From Podarcis pityusensis (lineage: Eukaryota), in the NCBI GenBank assembly GCA_964106645.2, contig OZ067039.1: DNA of 64,000 nucleotides; one strand, written 5' to 3'. The stretch's first letter is position 1. Each line of letters starts with the position of its first letter. Below are positions 52,901-55,900 of the stretch, in pieces. The notes under the pieces are model-generated. The model was not told the origin of the DNA, made no database searches, and was given only the letters and a program-made list of their open reading frames with translations. The translations under genes were made by a program, and so were the position numbers.

Positions 52901-55900
52901 ACCCCTGCCAGACGTAATTAGATCTATGGGCTGGAGGCTCCCCATACCTACCCTAAATGGACATGCCTATTAAAACAGAACTATGTAGGCAGCACAGACC
53001 ATTGCAACAAACTGTTCTGATAGCATTTTGTGCACAATCTGCTATTGATTGTGCTGGTCAACTCAGTCATGTTTTTAATCTTAGTTTCCATGCCTGAAGT
53101 CATCTGTGCCTATATTCTGTTTTAAAATCTACCTCCAAGAGCGTGCATACTTGCAAACTTGCAAATTGGCATTCAAAACCAACTCTAGTAGCTATATGTT
53201 CGGTGTGGTGTAGTGGTTAAGAGCAGTGGACTCGTAATCCGGTGAACTGGGCTCGCGTCTCCGCTCCTCCACATGCAGCTGCTGGGTGACCTTGGGCTAG
53301 TCACACTTCTCTGAAGTCTCTCAACCCCACTCACCTCACATAGTGTTTGTTGTGGGGGAGGAAGGGAAAGGAGATTGTTAGCCGCTTTGAGACTCCTCAG
53401 GGTAGTGATAAAGCGGGATTTCAAATCCAACTCCTCTTTTTCTTCTTCTTCTTGATGTTGAGGAGGAAATGAGCTTCATTACTTTTAATTCATTCCACTG
53501 TGCCCATATAAACAGGTATAGGGATTGCAGATGACTCTGCGTAGTAACATATAGTACATTAAATAGGCTGCCTTGTAATTAGGGTTCAGATGTTCCACAA
53601 AGGAGCGCAAATGCTTCCTCTTATTTATGTCCTAATTGCTGCTAGTGCAAACAAATGGTCGATTTGTTCCTAGGAAGTTGTAAAGTCTTATCTGGAGCTT
53701 TCCCTAGGCTTAATTTCATTATAGGGTTGCATGATTTCTACAAAACACACCAAATTCCATCAGTAATATTACTAAAAGCTTTGCATCTCAAACATTTTGC
53801 CCCACCGCTTTTCTGGAAGAGAGGAGGGTGTCCTATGGAAAGTATATTTTTTGTTGCACAAGTCCCGTTTTTAAAGGGAATGTGCATTGGATGGATATGG
53901 AATCGTTAAATGCAATAGATCAGGGTCACTGCAGACCCAGCAAGAATCTTCATCACTTTTTGCTCACCATGCAGACCTGGTCATATGTGTTAGAACTGGG
54001 ATTGGAAACTTGTGGTCCTGCGGATGTTAATGGGCTCCCAATGCCCATCACCCCAAGCTAGCACAGCCAACGATCAGGGATGATGGGAGTCATTGTCCAG
54101 ACACAGCTTCTTTATCCCCCTGTACTGGTAATAGTACAACAGACAAACATGACAGCTACTAGCATTGTTCTCTGCCTCAGATAGTGGATGGTCTTAAACC
54201 TATGCACACCTGGGAGTAAGTACCACTGAACTCAGTAGAAACTGTTTATTTAGTGCATTGTAACCTGGTTTTCAGATGCAATTTATTTATAAACTGTATG
54301 TAATTACATGAGGAATATTTTCCCCCTTTTCACTAGATGGCACTGATGCATTATCGGCTTACTAGCACTCCTCCCCCTTTTTAAAATGCAGATATTATTC
54401 TCAATCCAGAGAGATGTGTGAGGTCTGCATGTGCAGTGGGGCCTTTTCTGTCTTATTCCATGCAGCAGCTTTGTCTGAAGCAAGCAGTTATTTAAATTTA
54501 TGCTAGTTTTTTAAAAAAACCAAACAAACAGCAGCTCATTTATTGTGGGGTGGGAGAGCCTGCTCTTGGGTGGGGGAGCCTTGTGCTTGCACATGTGGGG
54601 GGGCACCCACATGAAGGGAACTCTGGATTGTGGTCACTGCATATGCAACAGATATATCAGGTGCACCTGGAAAACAAAAATCTTGCACCATAGTTCTAAA
54701 GCCCCAGAGGCCTTAAATATTTCTGCCTGGTGTTTTTAATGCATTTGAGAAAAGCCAGTAGTAACACTTAGCTATCCCAGGCAGAGAAGCTATAGGGTCA
54801 GCCTTTTTTTTTTGGGTTGGGAAGCCCACTTACATGAACCTGGACCTTGCCCATCAAGACCTTCCTGATTGCAACTTACCTTGCAGGGAAGGCGGCTGTC
54901 CCTCCCAGATAATTCCTCCAGAGTGTGCGCTGGATCAGAGTGGTGGCCCAGGCAGACCTTCCTTTTATTGGGAAGGAGCCCAAGATGGATGCCTTCATCA
55001 TGAGTTCGAAAGGTAAACTTGTTCTTATCTGTATGCTTATGGTTCTGCTAGTAAGCGTATTGCGCAAGAGAAGACAGTATGCTGGATATACACAGTGTAC
55101 CATCGTTTCAAGGCCACGAGACCCAAACCCATGATGGCTTTCTTTGGAAGCGACAGCCATATGGATTGGTGTAGGAGGAACTAGCAGAACCGCGATCTTC
55201 ACAGACAAGGACAAGTTTAACTTTCTGCTATACCCCTATACCAATCCGAAACTTTGAAACCCGATGCATTCAATTTTGTTTCAATCGAATGGAGTTTTTG
55301 ACGGGCATGTGCGACTCACAGGGATGTATGGCCCCAGTCTCTTTCTCTCCATATGGCCTACCTCACAGGGTTGTTGTTAGATTAATTACTAGAAAAGAAT
55401 CACTGCTGTCCTCCTGGCAAAGTTCATGCGGGTAACAGTTTGGGACAGGTTGTGTGCAGAGCTGCAGTATGAGATAGGATGGATGCATCTGTGACTCTGG
55501 GGCGTGTGGTTCCTTATGACAATCTCTCACGTGCCCATGGCTCCAAAGAGCTTGACAAGTCCTCACTGTAGCCATTGCGCCACACTGTGATATTTCGTAA
55601 CTAAAGGAATAGACGCCACACATACCGTCAGCTAGGTGACTCCCTCTGCAAGCATTACCCTCCTGGCCACATTTTAGCTTCAGTCATGCCCAGCAGTATT
55701 TTTTCCAGTACTTAATGGAGAAGGGAAACCACAATAACTTTTGAATCACGGATTAGAACTTGACCACTTAAAAGGTCTACTTCACAAAAAGGCCAAACAA
55801 AGTATATCAGTACTTTTCACCAAAATTTGAAAGAAATGTGTGATTTCTTTATAAATGGGAAAGAGGTCACACTTTTAAACTTGTTGGATCTGTGATAATT

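Follow-up and report, generated by a model that had tools for sequence, protein, structure and literature searches.

A predicted two-state RNA structure at a candidate poison-exon donor in an MBTD1 intron

A pair of long inverted repeats, arms A and B, lies between positions 55008 and 55247 of the 64-kb stretch of DNA analysed here (the window), and arm B can also pair within a hairpin of its own. The original prediction was of a two-state RNA switch, in which an antisense arm caged in that hairpin would compete for pairing with an upstream small open reading frame (smORF). The locus raises the question of whether such an RNA would have two states and, if so, what they would control. We favor, with a probability of roughly 0.4, a two-state pre-mRNA structure that would gate unproductive splicing of MBTD1, akin to those of ATE1, MAPT and BRD2/BRD3. 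The smORF is probably not what the structure controls; a donor site of MBTD1 pre-mRNA splicing is the more plausible target.

Host gene and repeat geometry

The element lies on the MBTD1 sense strand, within a phase 0 intron of 9,194 nt (48199..57392, plus strand) whose preceding exon ends at codon 163 (...NCFKH). Twelve exons, from 41877 to 62784, join into a single 486-codon frame with no stops, and the exon at 60105-60338 resembles human MBTD1 (PDB 3feo, E 3.8e-63). MBTD1 is a subunit of NuA4/TIP60 and a reader of methyl-lysine. The genome is that of a vertebrate, likely a lacertid lizard to judge by the look of its repeats. A CpG island at 33600-35000 of the window resembles a head-to-head promoter; the likely first exon of MBTD1 ends there, near 34914, and a first exon that begins near 33742 on the opposite strand is presumably UTP18-like, by synteny.

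The repeats were as first described, with all of the quoted strings found at the positions given for them. Thus, a perfect 12-mer (55041-52/55180-91) and a 25-mer with 22 of 25 matches (55008-32/55201-25) are separated by unrelated patches, ATGCTTAT in arm A (55033-40, 8 nt) and GCGATCTTC in arm B (55192-200, 9 nt). The exceptions in the 25-mer are the mismatches G55013.A and A55027.C and the wobble U55023-G. Arm A measures 45 nt and arm B 46 nt, a small correction to the earlier account. The hairpin said to enclose arm B was also recovered: its 13-mer (55163-75/55235-47) forms 12 Watson-Crick pairs and one G-U, its 8-mer (55182-89) pairs with 55223-30, and TTCTGCTA is present twice (55043-50 and 55223-30). 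The 33-nt hairpin loop contains 22 of the 25 antisense bases, in agreement with the claim that it exposes most of the antisense 25-mer. On one point the description needed changing, since the smORF is not upstream of arm A; instead, arm A lies within its 49 codons.

Among the local inverted repeats of the window, A:B ranks second (score of 43, compared with 35 for the best of 150 shuffled 4.5-kb regions). Taken alone, the hairpin at 55163-55247 scored 26, a value that chance can give in 4.5 kb (mean best, 22.8). The top-ranking repeat, 15408-15531/15740-15867 (134 nt, 75% alike, score of 89), is probably a transposon pair. Short elements with terminal inverted repeats at 35557-35786, 43301-43651, 50787-51213 and 58602-58842 are likely MITEs and would be useful neutral controls for fold studies. 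A perfect 16-nt inverted pair (54540-54555/56073-56088, 1.5 kb apart) encloses the candidate exon described below and the entire element; a similar motif is found at 47612 and 53347 and may be a common repeat word.

Table 1. Positions of the features discussed, numbered from the first base of the window
Feature	Coordinates	Strand	Basis
Host intron of MBTD1	48199..57392	+	exon chain without stops; downstream exon match to human MBTD1
Candidate 3' splice site with a branch-like CTGAT and a TTGCAG end	54862..54886	+	sequence; score 5.6
Candidate 126-nt cassette exon, predicted poison exon	54887..55012	+	splice scores; in-frame TGA 55001-55003
Exon segment, partner of 55152-55158 specific to fold 2	54894..54900	+	folding; upstream-shuffle test
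Arm A, begins with donor-like AAG/GTAAAC (55010-55018)	55008..55052	+	sequence; donor score 7.9
Interior, 127 nt, small hairpins	55053..55179	+	folding; no listed differences in organism G
L strand of fold-2 hairpin, 10-nt overlap with arm B	55163..55189	+	sequence; folding
Arm B, antisense to arm A; part of the A:B duplex in fold 1 and caged in fold 2	55180..55225	+	
R strand of fold-2 hairpin, largely single-stranded in fold 1	55223..55247	+	folding
Tail, partner of 55105-55113 in fold 2	55252..55260	+	folding

Known families were searched for over the same region. In word searches of its own genome (1.515 Gb), which skip very common words, miss distant copies and may let very old paralogs escape, the element was found at one place only. 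The end of a DIRS-like retroelement and a MITE relic, both suggested by the geometry, were rejected on this single genomic place and the lack of dispersed copies. No target-site duplication of 2 to 10 nt was found at five border pairs, which also counted against them. Rfam gave no match at gathering score in the 64 kb (best E over the element, 4.1), a tRNA search gave none, and the cores of ribozymes and snoRNAs were not found (no CUGANGA on either strand and no box C on the sense strand). A viral origin was rejected, with no matches in IMG/VR pattern scans. As for metagenome relatives, all four matches were unrelated palindromes with only a motif of 11 to 14 nt in common. Two metagenome contigs, L007 and L010, are GC rich and carry several short-palindrome copies of REP-like type, unrelated to the element. 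An old SINE remnant (55334-55398), to which many repeat contigs align, lies directly downstream of the conserved block.

Two competing predicted folds

A 256-nt stretch containing the element folded to -84.6 kcal/mol (z = -5.5), and none of 200 shuffles was equally stable; after adjustment for GC content, 3 of 532 segments of 240 nt folded as well. Two folds were computed. In fold 1, A and B pair over about 37 bp around small interior hairpins, leaving the tail free and the donor buried. In fold 2, a 13+8-bp hairpin between L and R cages arm B and the donor is nearly open; this fold also contains two helices absent from the original prediction, 55105-13/55252-60 (9 bp) and an exon helix, 54894-900/55152-58 (7 bp), and in it the 8-nt patch takes part in a local hairpin of arm A. 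When both arms were kept fixed and the rest was shuffled, the A:B-free fold was matched in none of 400 shuffles (-74.1 kcal/mol for the real sequence versus a mean of -56.4), whereas the A:B fold was matched in 90 of the same 400. Thus, the interior and the tail are better explained by fold 2.

The balance between the folds varied with the context. For the element block alone, fold 1 was ahead by 4 to 11 kcal/mol. In the context 54850-55300 the two ensembles tied (-155.4 and -155.7 kcal/mol), and there the opening of the donor cost 11.7 kcal/mol in fold 1 versus 1.8 in fold 2. The two folds came close when the 5' part of the candidate exon was included: fold 2 had a probability of at least 0.1 in 18 of the 30 contexts starting at 54820-54880, but in 2 of the 20 starting from 54900 and none of the 10 starting at 54780-54800, for a total of only 20 out of 60. 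Of 300 shuffles of the upstream sequence, 295 favored fold 2 less than the real sequence did, in a context that was picked after the fact. Masking of nine donor bases moved the ensemble to fold 2 in four of five contexts, and masks on three other arm segments flipped the fold equally well.

With prefixes folded in the order of transcription, A:B formed first and was dominant from 55192 to 55240. The barrier to direct refolding was 37 to 46 kcal/mol, which is an upper bound. Given this early dominance and the high direct path, fold 2 could be reached only if a factor occupied arm A or a helicase acted. The predicted effect of temperature depended on the context. The share of fold 2 was 0.01 at 10°C and 0.47 at 42°C in a first context and rose to 0.18 in a second, but was flat in a third and nil in a fourth. 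Context folding, the shuffle tests and the ensemble tie lend computed support to the proposal of a conformational switch by competing pairing, which would accord with these results.

The same calculations bear on a one-state RNA, in which A:B would be the sole structure formed in cells, where it would either silence the cryptic donor permanently or offer ADAR or other RNA-binding proteins a dsRNA platform, fold 2 being a by-product. This reading is possible but doubtful. It draws on A:B being the first structure to form and having a probability above 0.9 in most contexts, and also on the mismatch at A55027 of the duplex, an A.C mismatch being a typical context for editing. In addition, conserved intronic dsRNAs, such as that of SON, are a described class, and according to the accessible passages of a preprint such duplexes are rarely edited (bioRxiv 10.1101/2025.01.24.634786). 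The MBTD1 duplex resembles those passages' examples in being an intronic, single-copy, non-repeat duplex under conservation; however, MBTD1 is unnamed in the main text of the preprint and a rival fold is absent from the same passages. If only the duplex forms, the locus would be one more conserved intronic dsRNA. The better fit of the interior and the tail to fold 2 speaks against this one-state reading, as do two observations on a related organism given below.

Conservation in related organisms

Part of the stretch was present in 20 of 24 sequencing runs, and contigs from four of them (X5, X14, X15 and X19) were compared. X5, from organism D, is about 0.5% different and too close to inform on conservation, and X14 had zero cover over the element. 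X15, from organism G and of guessed RNA status, yielded one contig (55010-55479, depth of 5) with 14 other letters, 12 of which are listed, all in 55263-55429. The 238 nt from 55010 to 55247 thus held no listed difference (at most 2), compared with 12 to 14 over the 232 nt that follow (Fisher P of 4e-5 to 6e-3, the split being made at the border set by the original prediction, 55247). A permutation of the clean run gave a P of 0.0004 to 0.002. None of eight CpGs inside was changed, versus four of five outside (P = 0.007), and with CpG sites removed the P value was 0.003 to 0.06. At the flank rate, the chance of zero differences in the interior was 0.001. The first listed differences were at 55263-55264; the clean block starts with the donor and ends two bases past the last fold-2 helix. 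The tail, unpaired in fold 1, was also without listed change, which counts against a one-state RNA, weakly when taken alone (P = 0.14). Similarly, no A>G was listed in 55010-55262 of X15, the run of guessed RNA status, which also counts against the one-state reading.

The word content of further runs was in agreement with a conserved element. In four organism-G runs from three studies, 0.55 to 0.67 of the element words were present, compared with 0.20 expected from a uniform drift of 5%; the three runs besides X15 had 0.55 to 0.59, and the X15 contig implies 0.475. The complementary regions are apparently conserved across species, judging by the sequence of one relative. No compensatory change was seen in that relative (X15), which has no listed changes inside the block.

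These data weigh on a neutral origin, according to which two template-switch (fold-back) events made the element and the clean block of organism G is due to luck or to a low local mutation rate. Successive fold-backs would leave two overlapping inverted copies, the informative ortholog contig is one only, and the few segments that fold as well after GC adjustment point the same way. The permutation of the clean run, the unchanged CpGs and the high word shares in the three further organism-G runs nevertheless make this origin improbable. The neutral decay of pairing expected after a fold-back is likewise disfavored by the conservation of the block in one relative.

Another reading places the conservation at the level of DNA, as an enhancer or protein-binding site derived from an old fold-back or a transposon relic, with incidental RNA folds. 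Loops are unchanged as much as stems, the CpG observed/expected ratio is about 0.8 versus 0.30 for the window, as in unmethylated regulatory DNA, and A:B folding is equally stable on the minus strand. However, the borders of conservation coincide with predicted RNA helices and with the donor, the gap to fold 2 is smaller on the sense strand (10.9 kcal/mol) than on the other (13.1 kcal/mol), and the lack of a second genomic copy and of a target-site duplication fits poorly with a transposon relic. We consider this DNA-level reading unlikely.

X19, an RNA library labelled as a viral metagenome, covers 54850-55047 at a depth of 2. No differences were listed in 54850-54914 or in 55010-55047, whereas 8 substitutions and 2 indels fell in 54915-55009 (10 events in 95 nt); two differences near the contig ends are unlisted. 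The body of the candidate exon is thus not conserved in X19, which counts against the two-state reading. In favor of that reading, the base at 55009 stays paired after A55009G, as G-U on the sense strand. Three A>G differences (54982, 54985 and 55009) are indistinguishable from species differences, this run having no matched DNA run.

The original prediction had also offered options at the DNA level: an invertible 127-bp segment between the arms and conversion of a patch that would shift the smORF frame. The geometry, with arms around 127 bp and patches of 8 and 9 nt, is what speaks for them. The X5 and X15 contigs, however, cross both arm junctions in genomic orientation, no strand-change joints were listed in any of the four runs (contigs drop rare forms), and both patches are unchanged in organisms D and G. 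As for the smORF, A54985G abolishes its first ATG in X19, where three differences also lie close to the second ATG. Pfam searches of 13 frames gave nothing below an E of 0.06, with two weak matches (E of 0.07 to 0.1) short of the cutoff, and no protein homolog was found for a 119-aa minus-strand frame. These options, and control of the smORF, are very improbable.

Candidate splice signals and relation to known systems

The foot of arm A carries the donor-like AAG/GTAAAC (the slash marks the junction, 55012/13), which shares GAAAG/GTAAA with the real donor at 60901. With a matrix built from the 12 donors of the gene, it scored 7.9, within the range of real donors (5.6 to 10.7), a value reached by 13 of 1161 intronic GT; the probability of a donor this good in a given 45-nt arm was 0.03, for a matrix from only 12 donors. 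The acceptor at 54886 scored 5.6, which was reached by 63 of 1334 intronic AG and is below 12 of 13 real acceptors. The TGA at 55001-55003 is in the MBTD1 host frame, and X19, with eight substitutions in the body of the candidate exon, has indels of +4 and -1 that retain the downstream frame and the TGA. Forty-four intronic GT fit the consensus as well as the arm-A donor, and MBTD1 introns totalling 19.7 kb contain nine acceptor-donor pairs of at least the candidate's quality (seven donors). Such pseudo-exons are common; thus, the scores are no proof of an exon. No spliced reads were seen, and two RNA or RNA-like contigs (X15 and X19, depth of 2 to 5) run unspliced through the sites. On paper, the element would work like a structure-gated poison exon, and it is a candidate member of this class. 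Arm A was also considered as an acceptor (TAG at 55049-51, then TAA) and rejected, since 236 of 1334 AG reached its score of 2.3. On the minus strand, 54872-54882 is a perfect donor, AAG/GTAAGT; read on the plus strand, it could base-pair with the donor of arm A through an exact match of 7 nt.

The preferred two-state pre-mRNA structure would work as follows. The donor would be transcribed about 170 nt before arm B. With arm A left free, A:B would zip immediately, hiding the donor, so that the exon would be skipped and productive full-length MBTD1 mRNA would result by default. If U1 snRNP or another factor held arm A, or a helicase opened it, R could capture arm B; with arm B caged by R, the donor would be open and inclusion of the candidate exon would become possible. 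Inclusion would bring in a stop near codon 202 and lead to nonsense-mediated decay.

To our knowledge, there are few vertebrate cases in which a splice site is gated by two alternative RNA folds, and most of these lie kilobases apart. In ADAR hairpins of the GRIA2 R/G type, the exon end and the donor are inside a duplex, and in fungal TPP splicing riboswitches alternative pairing frees a splice site. The MBTD1 element differs from the former in having no A.C mismatch at the exon end and from the latter in having no aptamer or other Rfam match. Of the intronic structures R1, R3 and R4 of ATE1, two compete for one partner and set the splicing choice in a manner sensitive to polymerase speed (Kalinina et al. 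2021, as described in the review PMC11802352). Conserved intronic elements and competition for one partner, the latter predicted here, are common to both genes. The choice in ATE1, however, is a long-range one between mutually exclusive exons that are both coding, whereas in MBTD1 all parts would lie within about 370 nt and the donor itself would be one arm. The same review describes the hairpin of MAPT exon 10, which masks the 5' splice site (PMC11802352). There too a donor inside a stem lowers exon inclusion, but the MBTD1 stem is about 37 bp, and its partner is 127 nt off and has a cage of its own, as an anti-anti-donor. Finally, poison exons 3b of BRD2 and 5b of BRD3 are controlled by paired conserved complementary regions, according to the accessible part of PMC10789245. 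The likeness extends to a chromatin-reader gene, conserved intronic pairing and, for MBTD1, predicted unproductive splicing. In the part of that paper available, the BRD2 pair is placed in the flanking introns, whereas both MBTD1 arms are at or downstream of the candidate exon's donor.

A stronger version, in which a compact, riboswitch-like bistable RNA of a vertebrate intron would switch the MBTD1 poison exon, with temperature, or a race between U1 binding and transcription, setting the balance, is a long shot. If such a bistable switch existed in this likely cold-blooded host, it would be an RNA thermometer for splicing. A true switch would mean structure-based dose control of MBTD1 and would allow a test of whether RNA folding carries signals of temperature or elongation rate into splicing. 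Since the element spans only some 400 nt, the whole of it can be probed and placed in a minigene.

The literature search found no paper joining MBTD1 with a poison exon, ADAR editing or unproductive splicing, and no description of the element; further supplementary tables may list a human counterpart. No MBTD1 row was found in the readable supplements of PMC10123112 and PMC7726792, and that of PMC8091538, in its accessible portion, is an event near the 5' end. A human cassette event (hg18 chr17:46639365-46649693) spanning 10.3 kb appears in the available part of Table S6A of PMC5029452. From its spacing and coordinate offsets it may concern the same intron as the element; another reading is the skipping of the 86-nt exon. 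A cryptic poison exon of human MBTD1, exon 4b (hg38 chr17:51219466-51219582), is given in the accessible part of PMC11632617, and its number places it in an intron earlier than that of the element. By number, the intron at 44622-47349 should hold the counterpart of human exon 4b, and a pseudo-exon pair there, 44661/44720-44826, scores well.
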